NCBI GenBank assembly: GCA_963665765.1 | Contig: OY762464.1 | Location: 1,513,741-1,577,740 of the forward strand | Length of the DNA: 64,000 nucleotides | Reading direction: 5' to 3' | From: Acidimicrobiia bacterium | Lineage (GTDB): Bacteria; Actinomycetota; Acidimicrobiia; Spongiisociales; ZC4RG35 | In this document: positions 2,277-56,733 of the stretch, piece after piece | Layout: every line of letters begins with the position of its first letter | Numbering within the stretch: the first letter of the stretch is position 1 | Program-made: the position numbers and the translations under genes | Notes under the pieces: model-generated | The model's database searches: none | Seen by the model: the letters and a program-made list of their open reading frames with translations, nothing else | What the model was told of the DNA's origin: nothing

Positions 2277-3080
2277 GTGATAAAGGTCGGCATCGCCAGC
2301 GATCTGGATTTGGCATTGGGGATCGCTCGCCGAGCAGCGGCCTGGCTGAGGGAGGCGCTCGGCAAGGGCGCCGAGGTGGAATTCAAGGGGCGGGTTGATC
2401 CGGTGACCGAGGTGGATCGCCGGGTGGAGAAGGACATGCGGGAGATGTTGAGATCGCATCGGCCCTTCGATGCCATAGTAGGGGAAGAGGAGGGCGGGAT
2501 TCTTCCCGAACAGGGACGGGCGTGGATCATCGATCCGCTGGACGGGACGGTCAATTTTATCCACGGGTTGGCGCCGGTGAGCGTGTCGGTGGCGCTATGG
2601 GAGAGCAAATCGCCCCTGGTGGGAGTGGTGATCGAGGCCATTCGTGGCGAAGAGTTCACCGCGGAGCGCGACAAGGGCGCCCGGCGCGACGGTCAACCCA
2701 TTTCGGTGAGCGCCAACCAGGCTCTTTCTCAGGCTCTGGTCGGCACCGGCTTCCCGTATGATCGTCAAGAAAGAGCGCGGGAATACACAGCCTTGTTGGG
2801 GGCGGTGCTGGCCCGATGTCAAGGAGTGAGACGGCGAGGCTCGGCGGCTTTGGATCTCTGCTACGTGGCGGACGGCAGATTCGACGCCTATTGGGAGCAG
2901 GGCCTGGCGGTGTGGGATTTGGCGGCCGGGATCCTGATAGTCGAAGAAGCGGGAGGCAGGGCGACCGGCCTCAAGAGCGAGGAGGCGCCCCGGGACGGGT
3001 CCATGGTGGTGGCCACCAACGGCGTCGTCCACGCCCGGTTCCGAGAGGTGCTGGCCCGCGCGGTCAGCCAGACGACTTAA
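2277..3080 (+). CDS. Inositol monophosphatase family protein (SuhB/ImpA-like)
   Basis: IMPase motifs (DPLDGT..., WDxAAG). Start placed at an in-frame GTG downstream of the divergent lnt start; the ORF track extends further upstream to 2115. Confidence 0.75.
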   Translation: MIKVGIASDLDLALGIARRAAAWLREALGKGAEVEFKGRVDPVTEVDRRVEKDMREMLRSHRPFDAIVGEEEGGILPEQGRAWIIDPLDGTVNFIHGLAPVSVSVALWESKSPLVGVVIEAIRGEEFTAERDKGARRDGQPISVSANQALSQALVGTGFPYDRQERAREYTALLGAVLARCQGVRRRGSAALDLCYVADGRFDAYWEQGLAVWDLAAGILIVEEAGGRATGLKSEEAPRDGSMVVATNGVVHARFREVLARAVSQTT

Positions 3081-3090
3081 GGAGGAGAAG

Positions 3091-5064
3091 ATGGAAGAGT
3101 CCACCGAGGATATGTTCGACTACCCGGCGATCACCGTTGCGTTGGTGGAAGAAATCACCTCCGGCGCCATCTCGGAAGGGGAGCGGCTGAGGGCGGCGGT
3201 GCTGGATGCCGGCCCGAAGCGTTCCTATGACGATACCCTAGCCTCCCTCGAGGAGGTGGGGGAAGTGTTCGGTCGGGCCCACGGCCAGGCGGGGTTCATG
3301 GGTTACGTACACCCCGACGAGGAACTCAGAGCGGCCGGCCGCGCCGCGGGCGAACAACTCTCCAAATGGCTAACGGAACTGGCTTTCCACCCCGGGCTCT
3401 ACCAGGCGGTGGAAGAATTCTCCGCCACCGATGAGGCTGCCCGGTTGTCGGGAGAACGCGCCCGGCTGCTGGAGTTTGTCCGTCGGGACCTGCGGCGCGC
3501 CGGTCATCACCTTCCGGCCCGATCCCAAGAGAGGGTGAAGGAACTCACCGGGCGGCTGATAGAACTGGGGGTCGCCTTCGCTCAGAACATCGCGGAGCAC
3601 GAGGATGCCCTGGAGGTGACCAGGGAGGAACTGGAAGGCCTGCCCGAGGCCTATATCGATTCCCTGCCGCTCTCCCCGGACTGCGAGCGCCTGCTGCGGG
3701 TGACCATGGACTACCCTCACGTCACGCCATTCATGGAGAACGCCCGACGCCGTGACCTGCGGCGCCGCCTGATGAGCAAGTTCAACAGCCGGGCCGTTGG
3801 GACCAACCGACCGCTGCTTGAAGAGGCGGTGGCGATTCGCTCCGAGATAGCGGCGCTGTTTGGCGAGCCATCTTGGGCGCACCATCGCCTTTCTGACCGG
3901 ATGGCCAAGACGCCGGAGCGGGTGGAGGAGTTTTACGAACTGCTGCTGGCCCCGCTTCAGGAGGCCGGCCGCCGGGAAATAGAGCGCATCGCCGAAATGC
4001 TGGAGGCCGATGGGGAGGAACGACCCGTGCAGGTTTGGGATTGGCGGTATTACGACAACCGGATCCGCCGGACCGAATACGGGGTGGACCAGATGGAGGT
4101 GGCGGGGTATTTTCCGCTGGAGCAGGTGGTGGAGGGGATGCTGGACCTGACCGGGGAGGTGTTCGGGCTGCGGTACCGTCCGGCGAGCGCGCCGGTCTGG
4201 CATGAGGACGTGGTCACCTATGCCGTCTTCGACCGGGCATCGGGAGAGCGGCTCGCCCATTTCCACATGGATCTGTTTCCCCGGGAGGGAAAGTTCAGCC
4301 ATGCGGCCGCCTTTACGCTTCGGGGAGGCCGTCGCCTCCCCGACGGGTCCTATCAGGCGCCTGTGTCGGCCATCGTTGCCAACTTCACTCCGCCGTCCGG
4401 CGATGCCCCTGCCCTTTTGCAGCATTCGGAGGTGCTTACGCTGTTTCACGAGTTTGGCCACATTCTGCATCAGGTTCTGACCCGCACGGAATTGGGACGG
4501 TTTTCGGGAACCAGCACGGAAGGCGATTTTGTGGAGGCGCCCAGTCAAATCATGGAGAACTGGACCTGGCAGCCCGAGGTGCTGGCGAGGTTTGCTTTCC
4601 ACTACCGGACCGGCGAGCCTCTGCCCACCGAGGTGTTGGAGAAGTTGTCGGGGGCACAACTGCTGAATGTCGCCATCTCCAAACTGCGACAGGCCGGCTT
4701 CGGGTTGCTGGACATGGCCCTGCACGGCCCCGATCCTGACCCGGACCTCGACGAGATTCTGGCCGCCACCACCGAGGTTGCCCTGTTTCCCCAGCAGGAG
4801 GGGACCTTTTTTCCGGCCAGCTTCGGTCATCTCCTGGCCGGATATGACGCCGGTTATTACGGCTATCTGTGGTCGGAGGTCTACGGGGACGACATGTGGA
4901 GGCGGTTTGAGGAGGAAGGGGTCACCAACCCGGGGGTGGGGATGGAATATCGTCGGGAGGTGCTGGAGAAGGGCGGTTCCCGGGATGCGATCGAGACGCT
5001 CCGCGCCTTTCTGGGTCGAGAACCCGACAACCGGGCTTTCCTCCGCAAATTGGGAATCGAGTAG
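3091..5064 (+). CDS. M3 family zinc oligoendopeptidase (Dcp/thimet-like)
   Basis: 657 aa with HEFGH zinc-binding motif and M3 peptidase architecture. Confidence 0.8.
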   Translation: MEESTEDMFDYPAITVALVEEITSGAISEGERLRAAVLDAGPKRSYDDTLASLEEVGEVFGRAHGQAGFMGYVHPDEELRAAGRAAGEQLSKWLTELAFHPGLYQAVEEFSATDEAARLSGERARLLEFVRRDLRRAGHHLPARSQERVKELTGRLIELGVAFAQNIAEHEDALEVTREELEGLPEAYIDSLPLSPDCERLLRVTMDYPHVTPFMENARRRDLRRRLMSKFNSRAVGTNRPLLEEAVAIRSEIAALFGEPSWAHHRLSDRMAKTPERVEEFYELLLAPLQEAGRREIERIAEMLEADGEERPVQVWDWRYYDNRIRRTEYGVDQMEVAGYFPLEQVVEGMLDLTGEVFGLRYRPASAPVWHEDVVTYAVFDRASGERLAHFHMDLFPREGKFSHAAAFTLRGGRRLPDGSYQAPVSAIVANFTPPSGDAPALLQHSEVLTLFHEFGHILHQVLTRTELGRFSGTSTEGDFVEAPSQIMENWTWQPEVLARFAFHYRTGEPLPTEVLEKLSGAQLLNVAISKLRQAGFGLLDMALHGPDPDPDLDEILAATTEVALFPQQEGTFFPASFGHLLAGYDAGYYGYLWSEVYGDDMWRRFEEEGVTNPGVGMEYRREVLEKGGSRDAIETLRAFLGREPDNRAFLRKLGIE

Positions 5065-5071
5065 ACAGAGG

Positions 5072-5101
5072 CCGGGGGCCCCCTCTCTGAAGTGCCCCCG
5101 G
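5072..5101. terminator. GC-rich inverted repeat between convergent genes
   Basis: ccgggggc ...14 nt... gcccccgg, a perfect 8-bp stem between the M3 peptidase stop (5064) and the LiaF-like gene stop (5108). Confidence 0.4.
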
Positions 5102-5107
5102 GCCGGA

Positions 5108-5854
5108 TCAGGACTTCAGTTCGATCCCTCCGAACACCGCCGTTCCGGTAAGAGTGAGCCGACTCTCGGCACCCGGCGAGGGTGAAGGATGGCGTTTGTC
5201 GTCCACGCCCCCGAAGAAATTGGTGATCTGTTGATCGACGGTCCAGTGGTGGGGGATACGAATAGCCGCTCCACCGAACACGGCCGTAACTTCCAAGGTC
5301 GCCTCGCCGTCGGCCAACGCTGCCTCACGCAGGTCTATCTCGGTGGAACCAAACACCGAGACCACCTGGCCCCCGGCCAGAGCCTGGTCGGTGATTCTTC
5401 GATGGTTGCTCCCGAAAACAGAGGTGATGTTCAGTTCCCCGGGAGAGGACTGGTCTTCGAGGTGTGGGAGAGAATTCGATGGCGAGGAGCTTTTTCTCCG
5501 GGCGAAGAGGATCTTGACCCCGATCAGAATCAGGACCACCGGCCAGAGGCGCCAGATGTCACCAATGGTGTAACTCCAAACATCCAGGGTGTCCAGCAGG
5601 AACAAACCTCCCAGCACGATCAGCACCGTCCCCCCGACCCACGAGTCGCCTTTCCGCACCAGGTTGCCGACCCCCATCACGATCAGGATGACGGGCCACC
5701 ATTCACCCCTCGGTGAAGTTTTCCAAAAGGAACAGAACTCCGAGAGCAAGTAATGCCAGGCCGAACGCCCTGCGCCCGCGTGTGGAGGTCGAAGTCGCCA
5801 TGTTGTTCCTTTTCTATCAGAGGATTGCGTGCACCTGAAGGATAGATGGCGCAA
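5108..5854 (-). CDS. LiaF-like cell-wall stress membrane protein (DUF2154 C-terminal domain); start uncertain, possible frameshift
   Basis: Three predicted TM helices followed by a repeated VFGG..I motif typical of LiaF/YvqF-like proteins. A short ORF from ATG 5801 (MATSTSTRGRRAFGLALLALGVLFLLENFTEG*) lies upstream in another frame and may be the real N-terminus. Confidence 0.45.
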   Translation of the reverse strand: MRHLSFRCTQSSDRKGTTWRLRPPHAGAGRSAWHYLLSEFCSFWKTSPRGEWWPVILIVMGVGNLVRKGDSWVGGTVLIVLGGLFLLDTLDVWSYTIGDIWRLWPVVLILIGVKILFARRKSSSPSNSLPHLEDQSSPGELNITSVFGSNHRRITDQALAGGQVVSVFGSTEIDLREAALADGEATLEVTAVFGGAAIRIPHHWTVDQQITNFFGGVDDKRHPSPSPGAESRLTLTGTAVFGGIELKS

Positions 5855-5961
5855 AGTTCTCCGGTCCCGCCGCCGGCCAAGGTGGCCCGGCCGTTAATCC
5901 GGTTGTTCAGCCTCCGGTTGGCAGGGATGGGAGGTTAAGTAAAAGTTCTTTTGTAAATATA

Positions 5962-5990
5962 GTTGACAAATGGCTACGGCGCCCGTACAC
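5962..5990 (+). promoter_or_regulatory. Near-consensus sigma70-type promoter (-35 TTGACA, 17-nt spacer, -10 TACACT)
   Basis: Read directly in an AT-rich patch (about 5925-5995) just upstream of the ROK regulator gene; coordinates are +/-1 nt. Confidence 0.5.
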
Positions 5991-6045
5991 TGCCATTTTG
6001 GGTAAGCGAAAGGTTTGGCCTGTGATCGAAGAGTCGGGAGCCGGC

Positions 6046-7227
6046 ATGCTTCGCCTGAGAAATGGCCAGGCGGTTTTCGACCAGTTCGTTGAGGCCGGCC
6101 GACAGACGATCTCCCGAGCTGAGATTGCCCGAATGACCGGATTGTCCAAGCCCACCGTGAACGCTTTGGTGTCAGACCTGGAAGAAGCGGGGGTGGTGAG
6201 GCAGGTGCCTTTGGTTCAGTCCCAAGGGAGGATCGGTCGGCCGGCGGCGGCTTATCAACTGGTGCCCGACGCGGCGGTGGTGGTGGGCATCGACATGGGC
6301 GCCACCAAGACGCTGGTGGGAGTGGCTGACCTGTTGGGCGAGGTCATAGCCGGCGAGCGGGTTCCAACCCCATCGCACGCGGAAGCGGCCGTGGAGTCCG
6401 TGGTGGCGGCGGTGGGGCGCCTTCTGGAGAGTCTCGGCCACCCCAACCCCCGTTTGGAAAGCGCCTGCCTGGGCGTTCCGGGCGTTTACCGGCCCTCCTT
6501 GGACAGGGTGGAGATGGCGCCCAACCTGCCCGGATTCGGAGATCTGGCCATCCGGGCCGAACTGTCCAACCGACTGGGCGTTTCGGTGACCATCGAGAAC
6601 GACGTCAATTTGGCCGCGGTGGGGGAGGCGAACGCCATGGCCACCGAGGGAGTTGCGGATTTTGCGGCGGTTTCGATCGGAACCGGAATCGGTATGGGGA
6701 TGGTGTTGGATGGAGAGTTGTACCGGGGCGCCCATGGAGCGGCCGGCGAGATCGGATCGGTGAAGCTACCTCGGTTGGGAGGCGAGGTATTCCACGCTCT
6801 CACGCTGGAAGAGGTGGCGTCCGCGCCCGCCATTCGCAAGTTGTTCCATCGGGCGGTGGAGGCCGGGCATCCCACCGGCCTGGAAGGCGACTTCGATGTT
6901 CCCGCCATCTTCGCGGCTTCTGTCCAAGGCGATCAGGCCGCGGTGGCGGCCCTCCGGATCGCGTCCGATGCGGTGGCGTTTGCCGTTTCCTACTTCTGCT
7001 GGGTAAACGACCCCGCTCTGGTGGTGTTCGGAGGAGGGGTGGGCGCCAATCCCATTTTCGTTGATGCGGTGAGGGCGCGAATAGGCCGATACCTGACCGT
7101 GGTTCCGGAAATGGTTCCTTCGACAATCGGTGGACAAGCGGCGTTCTTGGGAGCGGTCTCCACCGCCCTGGCCTCGGTGCGGAGGGGTTTGGTCATCCAA
7201 AGACTGGGACGAAGGAACCAGAGATGA
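6046..7227 (+). CDS. ROK family transcriptional regulator / sugar kinase-like protein
   Basis: N-terminal HTH (ISRAEIARMTGLSKPTV) plus ROK sugar-kinase fold (VGIDMGATKT...GAAGEIG). ATG at 6046 preceded by a GGGAG Shine-Dalgarno motif; the ORF track starts at 5998, which would coincide with the predicted TSS. Confidence 0.75.
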   Translation: MLRLRNGQAVFDQFVEAGRQTISRAEIARMTGLSKPTVNALVSDLEEAGVVRQVPLVQSQGRIGRPAAAYQLVPDAAVVVGIDMGATKTLVGVADLLGEVIAGERVPTPSHAEAAVESVVAAVGRLLESLGHPNPRLESACLGVPGVYRPSLDRVEMAPNLPGFGDLAIRAELSNRLGVSVTIENDVNLAAVGEANAMATEGVADFAAVSIGTGIGMGMVLDGELYRGAHGAAGEIGSVKLPRLGGEVFHALTLEEVASAPAIRKLFHRAVEAGHPTGLEGDFDVPAIFAASVQGDQAAVAALRIASDAVAFAVSYFCWVNDPALVVFGGGVGANPIFVDAVRARIGRYLTVVPEMVPSTIGGQAAFLGAVSTALASVRRGLVIQRLGRRNQR

Positions 7228-8483
7228 CCGAGGCAGCGGCCGTCATTGCCGCCGCGGTCGATGCGGACTCGCTGGTTGATCTGGCCCAGGATGCGGTGCG
7301 GATTCCCAGCATCACTCCCAACGAAGGCGCTTTCGCCGAATGGGTTGCCGGCCGGCTTGCCGAGGGTGGCTGGAACGAGGTCGATCTGGTGGAGGTAGCG
7401 CGCGGCCGCCCGAATGTGTATGCCCGGACCGGCGCCGGAGAGTGTGGCGCCCGATCCTTGGTGCTGGCCGGACATCTGGACACGGTCCATGCCGATGACT
7501 GGACACAGGAGTGGGCGGGGAGCGATCGAGCCGACCCGTTCGCCGGACAGGTTATCGACGGAGAGATCTGGGCCAGGGGGGTGACCGATCAGAAGGGAGG
7601 AATCTGCTCCATCATCGAAGTGGTTCGGGCGATCCGTCGGGCCGGATATCGCCTGCGGGGATCGGCGATCGGATTATTCGTGTGCGATGAGGAGTCCGGT
7701 CAACCGGGAAGCGGGGTTTCTTTGGGAATGCGGGCCGCCGTCAAGCATCTCTGGGAAGGCTCAGGGCGCCCGCCCGATTTTGCGATCTACACAGAGCCGA
7801 GCACCGGCGCCATCTACTCCGCTCAGATGGGGTTCCTGATAGCCGACATCACGTTGTTGGGGAAGTCGGCCTACTTTGGCAGGCCTGAACTGGGAGTGGA
7901 CGCCCTCAAAGCAGGGCATGCCCTGCTGAGCGCTCTGTGGGAGCACAACGGGAAACTGTCCTCGGGAAAGCCCCATCCTCTTCTGGGAGAGCGGTTTCTG
8001 CTGGTGACCACGGTGGGGTCGGGCGGCAACATCGCGGTGCCTGGAAAGTTCGAACTGTCGCTCATCCAAAAGTTTCTGCCGGGGGATGACCTCGATGCGG
8101 CATCGTCGGCCCTGCGGGACATCGCCGCCCAAGTTGCGGAAGAGCACGGGGTTTCTTCCGAGGTGATCTTCTCCGCTCCGAGGGATCACTCGGTGGGGGG
8201 TACCCCCGATGAGATATCGGTCGACCATCCGGGCGTTCGTGAACTGGCCGGCGCCATCGAGGCGACCACCGGCCAACCGGCGAGAATCGAAGGAGCGCCC
8301 TATTGGTCGGAGAAACCGTTGTTGCGGTCGGCGGGTGTGCCCGGCGTCTATTTCGCCGCCGGTGACATCGGCGCCTGCCATACCCCTTTTGAGCGATTGT
8401 CCATTGAAGAGTTCGTTTCTTTGACCCGTACCTTGGCGTACTTTGCGGCGTCGTGGTGCGGAGTCGAAAAGCCCACAACCTAG
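7224..8483 (+). CDS. M20 family metallopeptidase (ArgE/DapE-like)
   Basis: AGHLDTVHADDW ... GVTDQKGG motifs typical of the M20 deacylase/peptidase family; its start overlaps the ROK stop. Confidence 0.7.
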   Translation: MTEAAAVIAAAVDADSLVDLAQDAVRIPSITPNEGAFAEWVAGRLAEGGWNEVDLVEVARGRPNVYARTGAGECGARSLVLAGHLDTVHADDWTQEWAGSDRADPFAGQVIDGEIWARGVTDQKGGICSIIEVVRAIRRAGYRLRGSAIGLFVCDEESGQPGSGVSLGMRAAVKHLWEGSGRPPDFAIYTEPSTGAIYSAQMGFLIADITLLGKSAYFGRPELGVDALKAGHALLSALWEHNGKLSSGKPHPLLGERFLLVTTVGSGGNIAVPGKFELSLIQKFLPGDDLDAASSALRDIAAQVAEEHGVSSEVIFSAPRDHSVGGTPDEISVDHPGVRELAGAIEATTGQPARIEGAPYWSEKPLLRSAGVPGVYFAAGDIGACHTPFERLSIEEFVSLTRTLAYFAASWCGVEKPTT

Positions 8484-8491
8484 GAGGAACC

Positions 8492-10696
8492 ATGAAAGGA
8501 ACCGTGAAAATTCAACGTAACAGATCCGCAAGGTGGCTCATTACCGGTCTGGTGGCAGTGCTCAGCCTGGTCGCGGCGGCTTGCGGCGGCGATGCCGAGG
8601 AGGAAACGACCACTACCCGGGCCACCGCCGAAGCCACCACTACCCAAGCGCCTGCCACGACGGAAGCTCCTCCAGAGCCTGTGGCGCCGGTTACTCAGGG
8701 GCCGGGTGGTGAGGAGGCTACTGCGTCGGGTGAGGTTGTTTTGAGTGGTGATGAGATTGCGCGGGTGCGGTCTGGGGGGTACACGGCGGCTTTGTTGTGG
8801 CATACGGCGGGTGCTTTTACCGATGCGGTGAGTCAGGGTGCTCGGGATGCTTTCGCGGAGTTGGGTGTTGAGGTGATTGCTGAGACGAATGCTCAGTTTG
8901 ATGCTGCTCAGCAGGCCAATGATGTGGAGACTGTGTTGGCGCAGGATCCTGACATCATTGTTAGTTTGGTGATTGATCCGGTGTCGGGTGCGGAGGCGTT
9001 TCGTCCGGCGGTCGAGGCCGGGGTGCAGTTGGTGTTTTTGAGTAATGTGCCCGAGGGCTATGTGCACGGTGTTGACTATGTGGGGGTGGTTACCGATGAT
9101 TTGGCGGCGATGGGGATGGCGGCTGCGGATCTGTTGGCGGATGCTTTGGGTGGTGTGGGGAAGGTGGGTTTCATCTTCCATGATGCTGCCTATTACGTGA
9201 CTAATCAGCGTGATCAGGCGTTCAAGACTTGGATTGAGCAGCGTTATCCGGGGATCGAGATCGTTTCTGAGCAGGGGTTGGCTGATCCGGCTCGGGCTGA
9301 GGAGATCGCGGCGGCGTTGTTGACGCGTAATCCTGATCTGGATGGTATTTATGCGCCGTGGTCGGCTGGTCCGGCTGATGGGGTGTTGGCTGCTTTGCGG
9401 GCGGCGGGTGCTTCGGATGTGGCGGTGGTGACGTTGGATCTGGACACCAATGTGTCGTTGGACTTGGTGGAAGGCGGGAACATTGTTGGTATCGCGGCGG
9501 ACGAGGCCTATGCGTTGGGACGGACCATGGCTTTGGAGGGTGCCTATGGGCTGGTTGGCAAGCAGGCGCCGCCGTTCACGGTGGTGCCGGCTATCGCGGT
9601 GACCGCTGACAATATCGTGGAGGCCTACCGGCAGTCACTAGCCACCGACCCACCCGCAGAAATCATGACAGCACTCGGCGAGTCCGTGCCTGTGGCGCCG
9701 GTTACTCAGGGGCCGGGTGGTGAGGAGGCTACTGCGTCGGGTGAGGTTGTTTTGAGTGGTGATGAGATTGCGCGGGTGCGGTCTGGGGGGTACACGGCGG
9801 CTTTGTTGTGGCATACGGCGGGTGCTTTTACCGATGCGGTGAGTCAGGGTGCTCGGGATGCTTTCGCGGAGTTGGGTGTTGAGGTGATTGCTGAGACGAA
9901 TGCTCAGTTTGATGCTGCTCAGCAGGCCAATGATGTGGAGACTGTGTTGGCGCAGGATCCTGACATCATTGTTAGTTTGGTGATTGATCCGGTGTCGGGT
10001 GCGGAGGCGTTTCGTCCGGCGGTCGAGGCCGGGGTGCAGTTGGTGTTTTTGAGTAATGTGCCCGAGGGCTATGTGCACGGTGTTGACTATGTGGGGGTGG
10101 TTACCGATGATTTGGCGGCGATGGGGATGGCGGCTGCGGATCTGTTGGCGGATGCTTTGGGTGGTGTGGGGAAGGTGGGTTTCATCTTCCATGATGCTGC
10201 CTATTACGTGACTAATCAGCGTGATCAGGCGTTCAAGACTTGGATTGAGCAGCGTTATCCGGGGATCGAGATCGTTTCTGAGCAGGGGTTGGCTGATCCG
10301 GCTCGGGCTGAGGAGATCGCGGCGGCGTTGTTGACGCGTAATCCTGATCTGGATGGTATTTATGCGCCGTGGTCGGCTGGTCCGGCTGATGGGGTGTTGG
10401 CTGCTTTGCGGGCGGCGGGTGCTTCGGATGTGGCGGTGGTGACGTTGGATCTGGACACCAATGTGTCGTTGGACTTGGTGGAAGGCGGGAACATTGTTGG
10501 TATCGCGGCGGACGAGGCCTATGCGTTGGGACGGACCATGGCTTTGGAGGGTGCCTATGGGCTGGTTGGCAAGCAGGCGCCGCCGTTCACGGTGGTGCCG
10601 GCTATCGCGGTGACCGCTGACAATATCGTGGAGGCCTACCGGCAGTCACTAGCCACCGACCCACCCGCAGAAATCATGACAGCACTCGGCGGATAA
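8492..10696 (+). CDS. Lipoprotein made of two tandem type-I periplasmic substrate-binding domains (ribose/sugar-binding-like ABC SBP)
   Basis: GGAGGA Shine-Dalgarno motif then ATG 8492; signal peptide with lipobox (LVAAACGG). Two consecutive 337-aa PBP-type-I domains that are 100% identical at DNA level. Confidence 0.75.
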   Translation: MKGTVKIQRNRSARWLITGLVAVLSLVAAACGGDAEEETTTTRATAEATTTQAPATTEAPPEPVAPVTQGPGGEEATASGEVVLSGDEIARVRSGGYTAALLWHTAGAFTDAVSQGARDAFAELGVEVIAETNAQFDAAQQANDVETVLAQDPDIIVSLVIDPVSGAEAFRPAVEAGVQLVFLSNVPEGYVHGVDYVGVVTDDLAAMGMAAADLLADALGGVGKVGFIFHDAAYYVTNQRDQAFKTWIEQRYPGIEIVSEQGLADPARAEEIAAALLTRNPDLDGIYAPWSAGPADGVLAALRAAGASDVAVVTLDLDTNVSLDLVEGGNIVGIAADEAYALGRTMALEGAYGLVGKQAPPFTVVPAIAVTADNIVEAYRQSLATDPPAEIMTALGESVPVAPVTQGPGGEEATASGEVVLSGDEIARVRSGGYTAALLWHTAGAFTDAVSQGARDAFAELGVEVIAETNAQFDAAQQANDVETVLAQDPDIIVSLVIDPVSGAEAFRPAVEAGVQLVFLSNVPEGYVHGVDYVGVVTDDLAAMGMAAADLLADALGGVGKVGFIFHDAAYYVTNQRDQAFKTWIEQRYPGIEIVSEQGLADPARAEEIAAALLTRNPDLDGIYAPWSAGPADGVLAALRAAGASDVAVVTLDLDTNVSLDLVEGGNIVGIAADEAYALGRTMALEGAYGLVGKQAPPFTVVPAIAVTADNIVEAYRQSLATDPPAEIMTALGG
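8677..10691 (+). repeat. Perfect tandem duplication: 1,004 bp x2, period 1,011 bp (8677-9680 and 9688-10691)
   Basis: Direct comparison of the two copies at their starts, middles and ends shows identical sequence. The junction carries a 7-nt linker, agtccgt. Confidence 0.85.
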
Positions 10697-10739
10697 CTTC
10701 CATGAACAGCTGATCGCCCTTGGGAAACGGTCGCCAACG

Positions 10740-11753
10740 ATGAGAGTCCCTGTCCTGGCCGGCGCGGTAGTCCGGTTGAAGCGGGCATGGACCGAGCAGA
10801 GCGAAGACGGCGGGTTTCGACGATACGTGGTCTATTTGGCCTTCGTTTCGATTCTCGCCGTTTTCGCTCTGATGCTGTGGGACGATGGTTTTCTGAGTTG
10901 GTCGAATCTGCTCAACATCGGTCGGCAGGCTGCTCCGATCGCAGTCATGGCGGCGGGCATGGCCTTCGCCCTGGCCTCGGCGGAGATAGATCTTTCTGTC
11001 GGATCAACCGTGGCGCTCTCGTCGCTGGTGGCCGCTACGGTGGTTGGCCAATACGGGTTCTTGCTCGGAGCACTGGCCGCGGTGGTGGTGGGAGCGTTGG
11101 TGGGGTGGGTGAACGGCCTGATCACCGTCAAGGTGCGAATCCCGTCTTTTCTGGTGACCTTGGGGACGCTGGGCATCATCAGTGGCATCGCCCGCAACAT
11201 GAACAATCTGCAGTCCATGCCGATCAGAAACGATACTTTTTCCGCCTTGTTCGGCGCCGGGTCACTGGGTCCCATCTCCTCGTTGGTGATATGGACGGCC
11301 ATAGTCTTGGCTATGGGCCATTTTGCGCTGCACCATCTTCGTTGGGGAAGGCATGTGCTGGCGACGGGCGCCAACCGGGCCTCAGCCAAAGCGGCCGGTC
11401 TCAATACCGACCGAATCCGGATCAGCGCCTTGATGGTGAGTTCGGTGGCGGCTTCCTTCGCCGGAGTGTTGCTGGCCGGGCGGCTGGCCATCGGTCGGCA
11501 TGATCTGGGGGAGAACGACCTGCTGACTGTGATCGCCGCGGTGGTGATCGGCGGCACCAGTCTGTTCGGCGGACGCGCTTCGGTCGCCGGCGCGGTGATG
11601 GGCGCCTTGATCATGGCGATGCTCAACAACGGGTTGATTCTCATGGGCCTGGAGGTGGCGGACCAGTTGATCGCCCGGGGCCTCATCATCATTGTGGCGG
11701 TGGCGCTCAGCATGAGGGCGCCATCGGAAAGCGCGGGTGACGATGTTCCTTGA
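10740..11753 (+). CDS. ABC transporter permease (RbsC/AraH-type, about 10 TM)
   Basis: Hydrophobic 337-aa ORF with the conserved permease loop motif; directly downstream of the substrate-binding-protein gene. Confidence 0.75.
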   Translation: MRVPVLAGAVVRLKRAWTEQSEDGGFRRYVVYLAFVSILAVFALMLWDDGFLSWSNLLNIGRQAAPIAVMAAGMAFALASAEIDLSVGSTVALSSLVAATVVGQYGFLLGALAAVVVGALVGWVNGLITVKVRIPSFLVTLGTLGIISGIARNMNNLQSMPIRNDTFSALFGAGSLGPISSLVIWTAIVLAMGHFALHHLRWGRHVLATGANRASAKAAGLNTDRIRISALMVSSVAASFAGVLLAGRLAIGRHDLGENDLLTVIAAVVIGGTSLFGGRASVAGAVMGALIMAMLNNGLILMGLEVADQLIARGLIIIVAVALSMRAPSESAGDDVP

Positions 11754-12945
11754 ATCTCTGGTCAGAAGGAACCGAGCCTTTCTGGAGGCCGCAGTGCAGC
11801 TTCACCAGGAAAACCGGATTCCAGCCAACAGCTATGTCCTGGATTTGGACACCTTGGAGTCAAACGCTCGCCACATGACCACCGAGGCTCACCGTTTGGG
11901 CTTGACCGTGTATGCCATGAGCAAGCAGGTCGGGCGGGCGCCGGGCGCCCTGAGAGCAATCACGCAGGGTGGGGCAGATGGATATGTGGCGGTTGACATG
12001 GGATGCGCTCGGCCCATCGCCGCCAACGGACACGCCATCGGCAACCTCGGGCATCTGGTGCAGATACCGCGAGCCGAAGCGGCGGAAGCCGCGGCCTTGG
12101 GTCCGGAGTATTGGACGCTCTTTTCTCGGAACAAAGCCGTGGAGGCGTCACGAGCCGTGGCCGCCTCAGGAGGCAGGCAAAAGGTTTTGCTGAGAATCTG
12201 GGAACACGGCGATATCTTCTATCCGGGACATGAGGGGGGATTTCACACAGATGAGCTTTGCCAAGCGATCGACTTTGTCAACGGGCTGGAGGGATTGCGA
12301 TTCGCCGGACTCACCACTTTTCCGGCCCTTTTGTACGACGCCGCGGCGAAAAAGGTGAATCCCACGACCAATGTCGGAACTCTGGCCCGGGGAGTGGAAC
12401 TTGCTCTCGGCCACCTGGGAACGGCCTTTCCCATTGAGGTGAATGCCCCCGGGACAACCTCGACGGGGGTGTTGGATATGTTGGCCGAGATGGGCGCCAC
12501 GCAAGTGGAGCCGGGGCACGGACTCACCGGCACCACCCCGCTGCATGCCACAAGAGAGCTTCCCGAACGTCCGGCGGTGCTCTACCTGACTGAGGTGGCC
12601 CATGTGCATCAAGGCGTTCCGTTGTGTTTTGGCGGGGGATTCTATGTGGATCCGGTGTTCGAACCGTATCCAACCAAGGTGGTGGTGGCGGCCGGCCCCG
12701 AGCAGGTGGACGGAGGGCTCGTGCCGATCGACATGCCCGATCCGGCCGGAATCGATTACTACGCCCGCCTCCATCCGGAAGGGCGAGCTTTGCAGGAAGG
12801 CGACACCGTCATTGCCGGTTTCCGCATCCAAGCTTTCGTCACCCGGTCTCTGGTGGTGGGCGTGGCCGGCGTAGCCGCTTCGCAACCGGTTGTGACCGGG
12901 ATCTGGAATGTGGAAGGTGTCCCGGTGGGCTGGGGCGGCCGATGA
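11737..12945 (+). CDS. PLP-dependent alanine-racemase-fold protein (YhfX-like putative amino-acid racemase)
   Basis: 402 aa with an N-terminal alanine racemase-like TIM-barrel signature (VYAMSKQ...) embedded between permease and ATPase genes, overlapping both. Confidence 0.5.
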   Translation: MTMFLESLVRRNRAFLEAAVQLHQENRIPANSYVLDLDTLESNARHMTTEAHRLGLTVYAMSKQVGRAPGALRAITQGGADGYVAVDMGCARPIAANGHAIGNLGHLVQIPRAEAAEAAALGPEYWTLFSRNKAVEASRAVAASGGRQKVLLRIWEHGDIFYPGHEGGFHTDELCQAIDFVNGLEGLRFAGLTTFPALLYDAAAKKVNPTTNVGTLARGVELALGHLGTAFPIEVNAPGTTSTGVLDMLAEMGATQVEPGHGLTGTTPLHATRELPERPAVLYLTEVAHVHQGVPLCFGGGFYVDPVFEPYPTKVVVAAGPEQVDGGLVPIDMPDPAGIDYYARLHPEGRALQEGDTVIAGFRIQAFVTRSLVVGVAGVAASQPVVTGIWNVEGVPVGWGGR

Positions 12946-13800: not shown

Positions 13801-14676
13801 TTAGCTGCTCGGTCTGGTGGTAACGGGCGCCCCGGTGGTGGTCGTGGTGGCTTGACTGGTGGTGGTTGTGGTGGCGGGTGCCTCGGTGGTGGTTGTGGTG
13901 GCGGGCGCCCGGGTGGTGGCGGTGGTGGCGGGCGCCCGGGTGGTCGTGGTAGTAGCAGGCGCGGCAGGAGCAGTGACGGTCAGGTCCCGGCTGACGATCA
14001 GGGAGGCTATCTCGTCGTCTCCGATGTACTCCGCGATAATCTCGGCGATGCCCTGGGTGAATACCCCGAACGCGGCCACCATGCCCGCTTGCGCGGCGCG
14101 GCGCTGTTCCCCGGCATCAGTCGATCGCAGGCCTTCCAGCATCTCCGCCGCCGTTACGGCGATCTGGCCGACCGCAGAGGCGACGGTCAGATGTTTCTCC
14201 GGGTACCGGCCGGTCGGAGGGGGTTGAACCAGGTCGAAATCGGCCTGGGCGGTTTGCAGGTTCTCTACGGCCGCCTCCAAATCCTCCTCGGTTTCCGAAT
14301 AAGTGGCCTCGGTTTCCGACCGATTGTCCCAGTCGTTGCTGATCGCGCTTATCTGATCCACCAATCGGCTGAAAGCCACTTCGTGGGCGAGGAGGCTTTT
14401 GAGAAAGTCCTGAACCACCTCGGTCGGAAAGGCGGCGCCGGTGGTTGTCTGGGTGGTGGCGGCGGCGGTGGTGACGGTGGTCTCCGGCGGTGAAGTGACG
14501 GTGGTTGTCTGGGTGGTGGGTGACCGAGGAGCGATGCTGGTTGTCGATGCGGTAGTGTCGACTGCCTCCTCCGCGTCGGAGGTGGCCGGGGGGGCCTCAA
14601 CCGGGTCGAGCAGGCACGAGGAGCCGCCCAAAAAAATCATGGAAAGAACCAGGAGCGCAATCGCGACTCTACGCAT
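13801..14676 (-). CDS. Secreted lipoprotein with Thr/Pro-rich low-complexity regions (hypothetical)
   Basis: Signal peptide plus lipobox (LGGSSC), TTTT/PATT repeats at both ends, and a central domain shared with the paralog at 15084-16007. Confidence 0.5.
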   Translation of the reverse strand: MRRVAIALLVLSMIFLGGSSCLLDPVEAPPATSDAEEAVDTTASTTSIAPRSPTTQTTTVTSPPETTVTTAAATTQTTTGAAFPTEVVQDFLKSLLAHEVAFSRLVDQISAISNDWDNRSETEATYSETEEDLEAAVENLQTAQADFDLVQPPPTGRYPEKHLTVASAVGQIAVTAAEMLEGLRSTDAGEQRRAAQAGMVAAFGVFTQGIAEIIAEYIGDDEIASLIVSRDLTVTAPAAPATTTTTRAPATTATTRAPATTTTTEAPATTTTTSQATTTTTGAPVTTRPSS

Positions 14677-20494: not shown

Positions 20495-22518
20495 CTATCC
20501 AGGATAGAGATCGTGGACGTTTTCTCGGGTTACCGGGGAGACCGACGGGATCAGCCGTTCGGGGACGGTATTCCCTTCGATCAGGTCCACAATGGCCGGC
20601 ACCAGGTACTGGCCGTAGCGCTCGGGGAAGTAGGAGATGGTGGCTTTGAACACCGACTCGTCGTCGGAGCGTCCCCGCAGATCTACCAGCGCCTCGTCAG
20701 AGGCGCCCAGGCTGGCTGCGGCAGCGTGGCCCAAGAAGCCACTTTGCTCCAACGCCAATGCGCAGTCCACGCCGGGTTGGTCGCTGTGTCCGAAGCAGAG
20801 CACGTGCTTGGCGTCGGGGTTGCCGGTGGCCCAGGTGGTTACGTTGGGAAGGGTGTCGGTGAGACCCTCGGTGGGAATGTCGTGGACGTTCTCGTCGGGA
20901 ATGGCAAAGGTCTCCCGAACGCCGTCTCGGGCGCCGTCGGCGCGGGCCTTGTGGACGGGCACGTCCGGGGTCCAGATCAACAGCAGTTCGGTCTCTTCCG
21001 GCGCCCAACCCTGTTCCTGGGCGAAGGCGGCCAGGAAGCGTCCGGCCTCCAACGCGGCGTTGTAGTTGTCGGGGCCGAAGGCCACGCATCCGGGGTGGGG
21101 TCCGTCGTAGGAGACGCAGGGGATCCCGGCGTCGTGGAAGATCCCGGAGATGAGTTCTTCGGTGCCGGCGATCCAGTTGGCGAAGATCACTCCGTCAACT
21201 TCCTGGGTGACCAGCAGGTTGGAGCACTCCACGGTCCTTTCCTGGTCGTAGGCGTTGTCGCAGTAGACGATCTCCACGCCCATCTCGGCTGCGATGGCGT
21301 TGATGTTGTCGGTCACGCTGTCGGTGAACGGAATACCCGAAAGCCCGTCACCGTAACCTAGCCTCCAGGGTTGCTCGGCTGCCCTGATCACGGCCTCGTA
21401 TTCGTCGCCGGAACCCATGGCTTCTTCGTCCAGTTCGCCTCCGGGGTACAAGTCCTCGACGTTGTCGCGGGTGACTGGTTCAACCGAGGGGATCAGCCTT
21501 TCGGGTATGTCGGTGCGTCCCTCGATGAGGTCGACTATGACCGGCACCAGGTACTGGCCGTAGCGCTCGGGGAAGTAGGAGATGGTGGCTTTGAACACCG
21601 ACTCGTCGTCGGAGCGTTCGCGCAGTTCGACCAGCGCTTCGGTGGAGGCGCCGGTCCCTACCGCGGCGGCATTGCCCAGGAACCCGTTCTGTTCCAGCGC
21701 CAGACCGCAGTCCACGCCGGGTTGGTCGCTGTGTCCGAAGCAGAGCACGTGCTTGGCGTCGGGGTTGCCGATCGACCAGGTGGTTACGTTGGGAAGGGTG
21801 TCGGTGAGACCCTCGGTGGGGATGTCGTGGATGTTGTCATCAGGAATGTCGAACAACTCCCGAACGCCGTCGGTGGCGCCATCGGCCCGGGCCTTGTGGA
21901 CGGGCACGTCCGGGGTCCAGATCAACAGCAGTTCGGTGTCGGCGGGATCCCATCCTTGGTCCATTGCGTATTGGGCCAGGTAGCGACCGGCGGCCACGCC
22001 GGCTTCGTAGTTGTCGGGGCCGAAGGCCACGCATCCGGGGTGGGGTCCGTCGTAGGAGACGCAGGGGATCCCGGCGTCGTGGAAGATCCCGGAGATGAGT
22101 TCTTCGGTGCCGGCGATCCAGTTGGCGAAGATCACTCCGTCAACTTCCTGGGTGACCAGCAGGTTGGAGCACTCCACGGTCCTTTCCTGGTCGTAGGCGT
22201 TGTCGCAGTAGACGATCTCCACGCCCATCTCGGCTGCGATGGCGTTGATGTTGTCGGTCACGCTGTCGGTGAACGGAATACCCGAAAGCCCGTCACCATA
22301 ACCAATCTTCCAAACTTCTGTGGCCGGACGGATCACGGCCTCGTAGGGACCGCTGGGCATCGCCGGCTCTTCTTCCACCACGGTTTCCTCGGGGGTTTCT
22401 TCAACCGCGGCGGCGGTGGTTACGGGGGCGTCGGTGGGGGCGGGCGCCTCGTCGTCCTCTCCGCAGGCTGCCACCAACAGGGCGACAACCGCAATTCCAA
22501 CTATCAATTTGCGTGGCA
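20495..22518 (-). CDS. Lipoprotein with two tandem type-I periplasmic substrate-binding domains (ABC SBP)
   Basis: Start MPRKLIVGIAVVALLVAACGE (lipobox). Two roughly 315-aa repeats with high amino-acid identity, including a 290-bp core that is identical at DNA level (21062-21352 vs 22007-22297). Confidence 0.7.
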
Positions 22519-22669
22519 TTCTCAACCTTTCTCTTATGCATCTAAGTGGCGAGGAATCCTTCGCCAACCGGGACGTACCCCACGACCGGCAGGTCGGTAT
22601 AAAGCGGAGGTGCCCGGTAAAAAATATCCTAACCCCACCCGCCGGAAGAGGGGGGAGCCTCAACCGACA

Positions 22670-28769: not shown

Positions 28770-29879
28770 TTGAGGGTACTGGCCTTTGCCGATCTCCACT
28801 TGGACGCGCCCTTTGCCGGAAGAGGTCCCAGGTTGGCTCGATTGCGCCGTGACGAGTTAAAGAACACCCTGGGCAGGATTATTCAATTGGCAGGGAGGCT
28901 AGAGGTGGATGCTCTGATGTGCGCAGGGGACTTGTACGAGCATGAGCTATTCACTCCCGACACCGTTCAGATGTTGCGTCGCCTTTTCGATGAGATAGCT
29001 CCCATCCCGGTATTGGTTTCTCCCGGGAACCACGACTGGTTTGGGCCGGGAAGCATCTATGTGACGGCCGACTGGTCACCCAACGTCCACATCTTTGGCT
29101 CAAGCAAAATGACACCATACGATGGCATTGACGGCGTTCGGGTGTGGGGTTTCGCTCATAGGAATCCTTCACAGACCGAGAACCCATTGGGTCGATTTAG
29201 GGTTGAAGGCCAGGGTTTGCACTTGGGGCTGTTACACGGATCGGAGGTTGGGGGCTGGGCCGGCGTAGCGCAATCCCATCCTGAAAAAATACGACACGCG
29301 CCATTTCGCTCCGAGAACCTCACCAGAGCGGGCTTGACTCATGGCATAGTTGGCCACTACCACAGTCCTTTCATGGGAGAGTTCCACACATACCCTGGGG
29401 CGCCCGCCCCGCTTTCATTTAAGGATCAAGGCAGAGGAGGAGCAGTTGAGATGCGGTTTAGTGCTCAGGGTGCCTTGATCGAACGTACTTCACATAGGGT
29501 TACCAGCTTGCCGGTCTACGATTTGCGCGTCGATGTGAGCGGATGCCTTGATTTCGGAGAAATACAGGACCGTATGGAAGCTGCGTTGGAGTCACTGGAA
29601 GGGGTAGCCAGAGTCACGATCTGTGGGGAATTGGGCAGTGCTGTGGAGCTCGACCTGGCCGTGCTCAGTCAGCGGCGAGGACAGTTACAAGATCTCGTGG
29701 TTCGCTCGGGCAGCATCTATCCCGGCTATGACATTGCAGCCATAAGAGATGAGTCCACGGTACGTGGGGCATTTGTTAGGGACCTGATGGCGGCCGATCT
29801 TGATGATGACGAACGACACCGGGTCATCATCACTGGATTGCGCGCTCTTGAGGGTCGTAACGATCTAGCGGTGGGCTGA
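28770..29879 (+). CDS. Calcineurin-like metallophosphoesterase, SbcD/Mre11-like nuclease (YhaO/SbcF-like)
   Basis: DLHLD, GDLYEH and GNHD phosphoesterase motifs. TTG start with GGAGAG 9-15 nt upstream (28755-28760). Confidence 0.7.
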   Translation: MRVLAFADLHLDAPFAGRGPRLARLRRDELKNTLGRIIQLAGRLEVDALMCAGDLYEHELFTPDTVQMLRRLFDEIAPIPVLVSPGNHDWFGPGSIYVTADWSPNVHIFGSSKMTPYDGIDGVRVWGFAHRNPSQTENPLGRFRVEGQGLHLGLLHGSEVGGWAGVAQSHPEKIRHAPFRSENLTRAGLTHGIVGHYHSPFMGEFHTYPGAPAPLSFKDQGRGGAVEMRFSAQGALIERTSHRVTSLPVYDLRVDVSGCLDFGEIQDRMEAALESLEGVARVTICGELGSAVELDLAVLSQRRGQLQDLVVRSGSIYPGYDIAAIRDESTVRGAFVRDLMAADLDDDERHRVIITGLRALEGRNDLAVG

Positions 29880-29882
29880 TCT

Positions 29883-30359
29883 ATGTGGTTCCGCAAGGTT
29901 ACGGCCGGGGCATTTGGTCACTTGCGCGACGAGAGCTTGAAGTTCGGGAAGGCTCTCAATATTGTCTACGGACCCAATGAGTCAGGAAAATCGACGTGGC
30001 ATGCCGCCTTGGTAGCAGCTCTGTGCGGACAGAAACACGGTAGTGGACGCACCAAGGCGGAGCGGAATTTCAAGAGACGCCGTAAGCCTTGGGACGACCC
30101 GGATCGATGGCATATCGCCTTGGAGTTGGTGTTGAATGATGGGCGAATATTTGAGATTGATCGCGACCTGAATGTTCCGAGGACCAGGGTTCTCGATATA
30201 GGTATGGGTGGGAGAGAACCAACCGATGACCTGATGAACCAGGGCAGTCCCGACGGCGCCAGATGGCTCGGGCTTGACCGAAACAACCTTTCCGCTGACA
30301 GCCTCGGTCAGCCAGGCAGACATACTTTCGATACTCAATCTGGGGACGCGACAGCGTAA
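29883..30359 (+). CDS. SbcC/Rad50-like AAA ATPase, N-terminal Walker A fragment (out of frame with the remainder)
   Basis: GPNESGKST P-loop. The ORF terminates at 30359 while the homologous protein continues in the +1 frame. Confidence 0.6.
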   Translation: MWFRKVTAGAFGHLRDESLKFGKALNIVYGPNESGKSTWHAALVAALCGQKHGSGRTKAERNFKRRRKPWDDPDRWHIALELVLNDGRIFEIDRDLNVPRTRVLDIGMGGREPTDDLMNQGSPDGARWLGLDRNNLSADSLGQPGRHTFDTQSGDATA

Positions 30360-56679: not shown

Positions 56680-56701
56680 GTGAGCGCTCCTTTGTCGTAG
56701 G

Positions 56702-56733
56702 GCATGTCCATACAGCTACATGTCCATACAGCT
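56702..56733. promoter_or_regulatory. Tandem 16-bp direct repeat catgtccatacagcta x2 immediately upstream of the peptide SBP start
   Basis: Read directly; lies in the AT-rich divergent intergenic region 56680-56940. Confidence 0.4.

Follow-up and report, generated by a model that had tools for sequence, protein, structure and literature searches.

The window considered here, a stretch of 64,000 nucleotides from an Acidimicrobiia bacterium (contig OY762464.1 of assembly GCA_963665765.1, positions 1,513,741 to 1,577,740 of the forward strand), harbors a gene for a solute-binding lipoprotein-type protein of 734 amino acids whose mature domain is encoded twice, in two identical tandem copies, and whose silent sites are strongly depleted of A and C on the coding strand within the repeated unit. 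The product matches the Pfam profile PF13407 (Peripla_BP_4) with an E value of 5.4e-70 and 236 bits (cut-off 35.1) in two stretches covering profile positions 7-247 of 258, and a lipobox cysteine (in ‘AAACGG’) closes its N-terminal hydrophobic segment. With the profile match, the lipobox and an adjoining permease gene all present, the product is, judged from its sequence, a Peripla_BP_4 solute-binding protein of an ABC transporter; an exact-protein look-up of the 734-residue product gave no record. The gene belongs to an operon of which the downstream part is syntenic with two loci of our comparison set (L001 and L002), and a transporter ATPase is found in the syntenic loci. The features of the locus are collected in Table 1, in which K denotes G or T, M denotes A or C, and a following 3 marks the third codon position.

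Table 1. Features of the binding-protein locus and of a second two-domain binding-protein gene in the 64,000-nt window.
Feature	Position	Strand	Basis or composition
ROK-family regulator, ordinary codon usage	5998-7227	+	Pfam; K3 (G+T at third positions).53-.54
M20 peptidase, ordinary codon usage	7224-8483	+	Pfam; K3.53-.54
Ribosome-binding site AGGAGG, 5′ of the binding-protein gene	8483-8488	+
Solute-binding lipoprotein-type gene, two identical mature domains, 734 aa	8492-10696	+	ORF; Pfam PF13407 Peripla_BP_4
Signal peptide and Thr/Ala/Pro/Glu linker, outside the repeat, ordinary composition	8492-8676	+	Third positions A.19, C.34, G.29, T.18
Repeat copy 1, 1004 nt	8677-9680	+	100% identity to 9688-10691, period 1011, in-frame
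G/T-ending zone of copy 1, 315 codons	8678-9622	+	A3.006, C3.121, G3.511, T3.362
A/C-ending tail of copy 1, holding the conserved GCCACCGACCCACC	9623-9680	+	A3.32, C3.45, T3 0
Inter-copy junction, 7 nt ‘agtccgt’, frame kept (…LG-ES-VPVAP…)	9681-9687	+	Sequence
Repeat copy 2, 1004 nt	9688-10691	+	Identical to copy 1
G/T-ending zone of copy 2	9689-10633	+	Identical to 8678-9622
A/C-ending tail of copy 2	10634-10693	+	A3.40, C3.45, T3 0
Tail/start complementary pairing	9641-9654 with 9715-9735; 8704-8724 with 9641-9654 or 10652-10665		9 invariant pairs
ABC permease (BPD_transp_2), directly downstream, ordinary codon usage	10740-11753	+	Pfam; K3.52-.57
YhfX-like PLP enzyme, ordinary codon usage	11737-12945	+	Pfam; K3.52-.57
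Second, unrelated Peripla_BP_4 gene, two tandem domains (unit 945 nt, 82% identical)	20495-22519	-	Mildly C/A-ending on its own coding strand

The G/T-ending zone of the first copy, hereafter the core, is 0.674 G+T and 0.187 C over all its nucleotides, against means of 0.527 (sd 0.026) and 0.284 (sd 0.024) in all other 945-nt windows, so that it lies at z = +5.6 for G+T and -4.0 for C and constitutes the most extreme G+T-rich stretch of the DNA analyzed. A preliminary description of this DNA had noted the asymmetry, and a G+T-rich, C-poor coding strand is indeed what we find. The figures quoted for 8690-10520 (11% C, over 70% G+T) are not: the whole-nucleotide values are 19.0% C and 66.8% G+T, and 11% C fits third codon positions only (C 0.121 with 87% G+T in the core). 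Nor is the skew even across that interval; it covers the two G/T-ending zones, and the last ~20 codons of each copy are skewed in the opposite sense. Both the binding of the skew to the repeat unit and its reversal at the unit’s 3′ end were absent from the earlier account. That account was right in taking the gene’s N-terminus (8492-8677) and the operon neighbors as normal (C3 0.33-0.35, T3 0.13-0.18). It overstated the case in describing GGT, GTT, GAT and GCT as used almost exclusively, since in the core GTG outnumbers GTT (27 vs 10), GCG outnumbers GCT (29 vs 23) and GGT (17) is accompanied by GGG (12). What is scarce are GGC (3), GTC (1), GCC (5), GAC (6, vs 19 GAT) and CTG (4, vs 21 TTG), and only 2 of the 315 codons end in A. 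The idea of systematic C-to-T replacement thus captures the silent excess of T over C on one strand and misses the equally frequent G-ending codons; more than C-to-T replacement is involved, and the accurate description is that codons ending in C or A have been lost. The gene at 20495-22519, offered as a paralogous standard, is no close paralogue (~29% identity, in short stretches only), and a dN/dS comparison against it is meaningless at that level of similarity.

The skew also leaves its mark on gene prediction. Because A is nearly missing at sense third positions, long antisense open reading frames overlap the skewed gene (8480-9181, minus strand, 233 aa; 9638-10192, minus strand, 184 aa), and a caller that uses GC content by codon position chose the antisense strand of the gene as coding.

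To place the gene among its relatives we drew on 1367 homologues and 78 genome loci of 13 kb, ~1 Mb in total. The closest homologues are single- or double-domain proteins of sponge-associated Acidimicrobiia (Ca. Spongiisociaceae, Poriferisodalis, Aldehydirespirator and others); the orthologues are mostly single-domain proteins of 390-430 aa, and their operon has the identical layout of ROK regulator, M20 peptidase, binding protein, permease, YhfX-like enzyme and ATPase, of which the binding protein is the best-conserved protein. We distinguish clade A, the strongly G/T-ending group of the window; clade B, moderately G/T-ending; clade C, A/C-ending (L017, L018, L023, L024, L026, L028, L029 and L002); and clade D, more distant relatives that are unskewed except at the start of the unit. 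In a neighbor-joining tree of first and second codon positions, clades A, B and C emerge as groups that agree with the divergences of the flanking genes, and clade C groups with clade B and L025. A G/T-ending core with equal boundaries recurs in ~20 species-level genomes and in independent JGI, ENA and NCBI assemblies, some of them long-read, and the genes adjoining the binding-protein genes of these relatives have normal composition. Third-position G+T in the unit is.74-.85 against.47-.57 in the neighbors by one comparison and.83-.97 against.44-.57 in the flanks by another; the part encoding signal peptide and linker is free of skew in every clade, and second codon positions are unchanged (K.42-.44 in all clades). 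A-ending codons are avoided already in the unskewed relatives of clade D (A3.01-.02).

In clade C the same unit is found in the mirror-image state, with third-position G+T of only.18-.31 on the coding strand. Four-fold degenerate sites in the window comprise 99 G, 64 T, 15 C and 1 A; in L024 they comprise 105 C, 43 A, 10 G and 2 T. The complementarity extends to the two-fold boxes, in which NNY codons end in T or C 42 and 14 times in the window and 0 and 55 times in L024, and NNR codons end in G or A 54 and 1 times in the window and 14 and 20 times in L024. Between a G/T-type and an A/C-type species (L019 and L023), 54% of the four-fold sites in the unit differ and only 3% of the amino acids; in the flanking genes, 29-42% of four-fold sites differ. 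This mirror state in a sister clade points to a strand-specific bias of repair or gene conversion, and not to an error, a foreign gene or a burst of mutation. The compared G/T-type and A/C-type loci (L019/L023, L025/L023 and L019/L017) share just a collinear block of ~8.5 kb around the operon (locus ~2340-10860), outside of which the sequences are unrelated; because clades B and C have only this block in common, the operon block must have been relocated.

Maps of third-position G/T further show that polarity within the unit is alike in all skewed species, G/T-ending at its start and A/C-ending at its end, with a switch that lies at ~codon 315 of 337 in clade A and at ~codon 40-60 in clade C and is gradual in clade B; clade D retains only the G/T-ending start. 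In all clades, conservation at silent sites marks both extremities, ‘act cag ggg ccg ggt ggt gag gag gct’ at the unit start and ‘gcc acc gac cca cc’ in the tail, and the synonymous sites of the copy-1 tail (9623-9680) are conserved across clades A-D. The conserved tail GCCACCGACCCACC and the unit start GGGCCGGGTGGTGAGGAGGC flank the unit, abut across the inter-copy junction and are partly complementary to each other. A search for RNA structure or a hairpin across the junction found a single-sequence fold no better than those of shuffled sequences (z -0.2), and a fold of the alignment of 12 species paired the tail with the next unit’s start through 9 invariant pairs, with no covariation. Searches for internal promoters and terminators in the repeat gene returned nothing above chance.

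The duplication itself is old. Tandem copies occur in 12 other species of both codon types, several of them known from long-read assemblies, and the homologous junction (LGE-x-P-x-AP) in clades A, B and C (L006, L016, L008, L013, L014, L019, L023, L029 and L017) places the duplication before the split of these species. In the window and in 11 other species the two copies differ by 0-1 nt per kb and the orthologues of different species by 8-30%; near-identity within species together with divergence between them therefore indicates concerted evolution, and on these sequence comparisons the two copies are kept identical by very frequent homogenization. The sole duplicated species with diverged copies is L025 (83 mismatches, L025:4986-7001). 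There, codons ~70-130 of copy 2 form a patch similar to the sister clade’s A/C-type allele, suggestive of allelic recombination between the codon types. Single-copy and two-copy species are intermixed within clade A, so the collapse of copies, whether biological or by short-read assembly, must be frequent relative to sequence change.

How the skew is upheld can be seen from substitutions at four-fold sites, which we counted by parsimony in six subclades, with clade C complemented, and compared with expectations from the flanking genes of the same genomes. Changes that place A or C on the G/T-rich strand (K>M) are strongly deficient (91 observed, 319 expected, O/E 0.29), those in the opposite direction (M>K) are near expectation (64 observed, 53 expected, O/E 1.21) and exchanges between G and T occur at the flank rate (99 observed, 95 expected, O/E 1.04). 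The deficit extends over all four K>M classes (O/E of.26 for G>A,.37 for T>C,.25 for G>C and.14 for T>A), so that transversions are suppressed like transitions, a pattern not expected from deamination of cytosine alone. Species of a single codon type have diverged about half as much at the four-fold sites of the unit as at those of the flanks. Neither the overall rate of mutation nor the degree of constraint looks abnormal. The skew is thus upheld by a 3-4-fold deficit of K>M changes, i.e., by a bias in fixation or repair and not by extra mutation. The few changes at first and second positions run the same way: the branches to clades A and B carry 5 M>K and no K>M, and the branch to clade C carries 6 K>M and no M>K. 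Four-fold rates scaled by these ratios yield a stationary composition skewed in the right manner, with a G+T of.76-.79, vs.91 observed in the window.

The sign of the skew may be associated with the local replication-type strand bias. As an estimate of which strand is leading-strand-like we used s, the difference in third-position GC skew between plus- and minus-strand flanking genes. s is zero or positive in 11 of 11 strongly skewed clade A loci (+0.08 from 39 genes in the window), lies between 0 and +.04 in clade B and is zero or negative in the 3 of 3 clade C loci in which it was measurable. In the window, the skewed coding strand is the strand of leading-strand (G-rich) composition; the local skew suggests that the operon of the sister clade has the opposite replication orientation. 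Orientations read from contig coordinates of chromosome-level assemblies, taking position 1 as the origin, were inconsistent and were not used.

Other repeats were compared as well. Elsewhere in the ~1 Mb examined, all the remaining long near-identical direct repeats, those of L016 and L063, are G/T-ending on the G/T-rich strand; among the exceptions to a link between repeats and skew are the identical, not strongly skewed copies of L032. All composition outliers of the window are G/T-rich on the plus strand. In L016, a clade A locus, a gene upstream of the same operon (L016:138-2210) encodes five near-identical repeats of ~90 aa and a C-terminal SLH domain, with third-position G+T of.83 over the repeats. 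In L063, whose own binding-protein gene is unskewed, the gene of a secreted protein with four fn3 domains (L063:653-3151) has repeats of 90-94% identity and a third-position G+T of 91% (A.02, C.07), a skew that begins at the start codon, runs for ~700 codons and falls to 0-3 in 10 over the last 50 codons. The second two-domain gene of the window (20495-22519) lies on the minus strand and is C-ending there (ACC 40 of 41, GAC 53 of 58, GCC 54 of 73), which makes it G/T-rich on the plus strand, and its most skewed part (C3.66, K3.26) is an exact conversion tract of 291 nt (22007-22297 = 21062-21352). The family of this gene gives no independent test: its 7 metagenome relatives (JGI) are all single-copy, and the closest two share the mild C-ending bias.

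A mismatch-repair system with a narrow range of substrates offers a possible link between these observations. Cleavage by NucS/EndoMS is limited to G/T, G/G and T/T mismatches (PMC6159521). When single-stranded DNA is introduced on the lagging-strand template in M. smegmatis, C-C, A-A, C-A and G-A mispairs are kept and G-T, G-G and T-T mispairs are lost by short-patch repair (PMC11551744). Wild-type C. glutamicum displays a leading-strand excess of A>G and C>T (PMC6159521), and NucS has been reported in one member of the Acidimicrobiia, Ilumatobacter (PMC5290159). With the G/T-rich strand as resident, the changes that involve a G·T, G·G or T·T intermediate are precisely the four substitution classes suppressed in the unit.

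Our best hypothesis, which we advance tentatively and rate at somewhat short of even likelihood, is that gene conversion between the copies is strand-polar, that it is filtered by an activity of the NucS/EndoMS kind which rejects G/T-type mismatches only, and that the direction of replication sets its polarity. Homogenization would proceed through strand-polar heteroduplexes, in which nascent lagging-strand DNA of one repeat pairs with the lagging-strand template of the other. NucS/EndoMS would strip the incoming base at G·T, G·G and T·T and ignore A·C, A·A and C·C, so that a resident G or T would be protected from conversion and a resident A or C converted. Mutations from A or C to G or T would then spread to both copies, those from G or T to A or C would be erased, and inversion of the operon relative to the fork would swap the favored strand and produce mirror codon usage. 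For two copies the model predicts K>M fixation near zero, M>K raised up to two-fold and G<->T neutral, to which the observed values are close; under the model the skew should also stay within the repeat and reverse when the operon is inverted. We infer the involvement of NucS in these sponge symbionts from the substitution classes and the published properties of the enzyme.

Several observations weigh against strand-polar conversion. Exchanges between A and C should be neutral under the model and are absent (0 observed vs 12.7 expected), for which selection against A-ending codons may account. M>K changes are raised only 1.2-fold (approximate Poisson interval.93-1.55), and perfect conversion bias between two copies predicts ~1.7-fold; moreover, these counts come from parsimony, which is biased under skewed base composition, and from subclades that are not fully independent. 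The G/T-ending first ~20-40 codons and the A/C-ending last ~20 codons are common to all clades, and the model gives no account of them. Present copy number does not predict skew, with the single-copy long-read loci L007 and L020 skewed as strongly as two-copy ones and the copies of L032 identical and without strong skew, and in L063 the skew reaches over non-repeated parts of the fn3 gene. Finally, clade D has negative s without a strong A/C skew, and replication orientation was in every case read from the local skew of a few flanking genes.

The main rival, unlikely in our estimation, attributes the skew to damage and repair that differ between the strands of a very highly expressed gene. One strand (the non-transcribed or lagging-template strand) would be exposed as single-stranded DNA and accumulate lesion-derived C>T, A>G and G>T changes, the other would be protected, e.g., by transcription-coupled repair or by altered fork behavior at transcription-replication encounters, and head-on or co-directional orientation would set the sign. 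The binding protein is the best conserved of its operon, as is typical of high expression; the other skewed genes code for secreted or surface proteins (four fn3 domains, an SLH domain), and in L063 the skew starts with the start codon and takes in non-repeated sequence. All twelve substitution classes, including the absence of C>A and A>C, can be fitted by ~0.25x on one strand and ~1.15x on the other, the sign tends to follow the local replication-type skew, and present copy number has no bearing. Against this explanation, the first 62 codons are unskewed in every clade, the last 20 are reversed, the remaining operon genes are unaffected and another binding-protein gene of the window (54805-56679) is unskewed. 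Transcription-coupled repair is unable to protect the coding strand, as the mirror clade would require, and the input of mutations is not raised, with four-fold divergence half that of the flanks and G<->T at 1.04. Selection on silent sites, which we regard as improbable, would act through translation, with preferred codons particular to a lineage, or through features of the mRNA or DNA, such as stability, structure or R-loop propensity, with a clade-specific optimum. It would suit the rates, in which one direction is suppressed and the other mildly raised, as expected of a fixation bias, the low synonymous divergence, as in strongly codon-biased genes, the avoidance of A-ending codons in clade D and the synonymous conservation of both unit ends. 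Codon-anticodon rules, however, do not predict complementary base states, and the preference for NNT over NNC in two-fold boxes is opposite to the usual one. The state flips between species with 97% identical proteins, a single reading frame has unskewed and reversed parts, and of the two two-domain binding-protein genes in the same genome one is G/T-ending and the other C/A-ending. Selection would also predict a gain of ~2.5x in the favored direction, against the 1.2x observed.

The explanations originally put forward for the skew fare less well. Import of the domain-coding segment, by recombination with a homologue from a donor of very different codon usage, would give the sharp boundaries within the gene, and allelic recombination does occur, as the A/C-like patch in copy 2 of L025 attests; the ~8.5-kb operon block likewise sits in different surroundings in clades B and C. 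We nevertheless consider such an import very improbable, and no outside donor supports it: among the 1367 homologues and 78 loci no sequence with such codon usage was found outside the orthologous clade, and to our knowledge no bacterium has a genome-wide skew this large (third-position G+T.87, A.006). The tree of first and second positions groups the species as their flanks do, the operon is syntenic, the sister clade is complementary, and the constant order of G/T then A/C in all species is not what random mosaics would give. A burst of strand-specific cytosine (and adenine) deamination, or an artefact of sequencing or assembly, would account for a coding strand with little C and A and much T and G, and is effectively refuted. 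An artefact is excluded because the same skew with the same boundaries is inherited across ~20 species in independent assemblies, long-read ones included. Hypermutation by a deaminase, or of a kind resembling repeat-induced point mutation, was rejected as well: per-site C>T is close to the flank rate (0.22 vs 0.20 in one subclade; pooled O/E 1.58), four-fold sites show C>G differences as often as C>T ones, the copies are identical, and the reading frame is intact under strong purifying selection with second positions unchanged. That divergence is about half that of the flanks, with G<->T at the flank rate and only one direction deficient, likewise speaks against hypermutation. Diversity-generating retroelements are recognized by template and variable repeats that differ at adenines, with a reverse transcriptase nearby; here the copies are identical, and no reverse-transcriptase domain was found among the scanned operon genes or those listed in the syntenic loci.

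Some further features of the window were recorded in the same survey. A 912-aa coiled-coil reading frame without a Pfam match (30274-33012, plus strand) adjoins a metallophosphoesterase gene (28770-29879), an SbcCD/YhaON-like pair in a stretch of lower GC content (28.5-34 kb, GC.55-.60). It contains two diverged internal repeat pairs, in each of which one member is G/T-ending and the other normal (patches 30661-31065 and 31921-32385). In the SBP_bac_5 binding-protein gene at 54805-56679 (minus strand), codon usage is ordinary and the N-terminal part encodes a long low-complexity linker of Ala and Glu; a plus-strand match of the G/T scan at 56253-56702 was rejected as a by-product of the antisense of this linker. 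Short tandem arrays with TGGTGG/CCACCA-type units at 13815-13962 (periods 27/51) and 36641-36718 (period 36) probably encode Pro-, Thr- or Ala-rich linkers.

The pattern shares features with several known systems and coincides with none. Replication-associated skew makes the leading strand G+T-rich, is small and touches all genes of a strand. The skew of the unit is likewise G+T-rich on one strand, with a sign that tends to agree with the leading-strand-type skew of the flanking genes; unlike replication-associated skew, it concerns one 1-kb unit, spares the gene’s own N-terminus and operon neighbors and reverses within the unit. As in other cases of concerted evolution by gene conversion, the copies are identical within a genome and diverged between species, and the rates resemble those of a fixation bias. 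Known (GC-)biased gene conversion, however, favors G and C on both strands; in the unit, one strand has T preferred to C (42 vs 14 in NNY codons) and G preferred to A, and the sister clade shows the complement. Transcription-associated mutational asymmetry produces an excess of C>T and A>G on the non-transcribed strand, and the coding strand of this probably highly expressed gene is indeed G+T-rich; such asymmetry is at odds with the A+C-rich coding strand of the mirror clade, with the unaffected 5′-most 186 nt of the transcript and with a rate that is not raised. Mutation clusters that flank breaks, where resection exposes single-stranded DNA, and the heavy-strand skew of vertebrate mitochondria resemble the unit in being bipolar, with G and T abundant on the left of a switch point and A and C on its right, and in the near loss of A and C at silent sites of one strand. 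Those systems reflect excess damage, whereas the unit shows a normal input of mutations in a steady state under purifying selection, bound to the repeat. The substrate range of NucS/EndoMS, which takes in G·T, G·G and T·T and leaves out A·C, A·A and C·C, matches the classes suppressed in the unit, although this repair has been described as a filter of replication errors and recombineering and not as a force on codon usage in repeats. The idea that asymmetries of recombination-associated repair could alter the composition of paralogous regions appears, as speculation only, in a 2026 preprint on M. tuberculosis (PMC13061034). Literature searches for the phenomenon, in sponge Acidimicrobiia or in bacteria generally, found nothing specific; replication skew, concerted evolution and the narrow range of NucS are each known singly, and we have not found their combination described.

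Whatever the mechanism, mirror states in sister species with near-identical proteins provide an unusually clean natural experiment on synonymous sites. If strand-polar conversion is correct, silent-site composition would be rewritten locally and fast by the combination of repeat homogenization, replication direction and the substrate range of mismatch repair, and routine analyses, including codon-usage tests of horizontal gene transfer, expression-level predictors, dS-based clocks and frame-based gene callers, can be misled by such a region. This would represent a new form of biased gene conversion, strand-specific and acting on G/T vs A/C instead of GC vs AT, and the skewed units would be a natural read-out of NucS action in uncultured Actinobacteria. 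It is possible, if doubtful, that a strand-biased, ‘keto-biased’ gene conversion operates generally in bacteria that use NucS/EndoMS in place of MutS/MutL, rewriting the codon usage of repeats and flipping with their replication orientation; it would then be an evolutionary force not described before. For the sponge symbionts themselves, the retention of an identical two-domain binding protein across many species suggests selection for dosage or avidity in nutrient capture.

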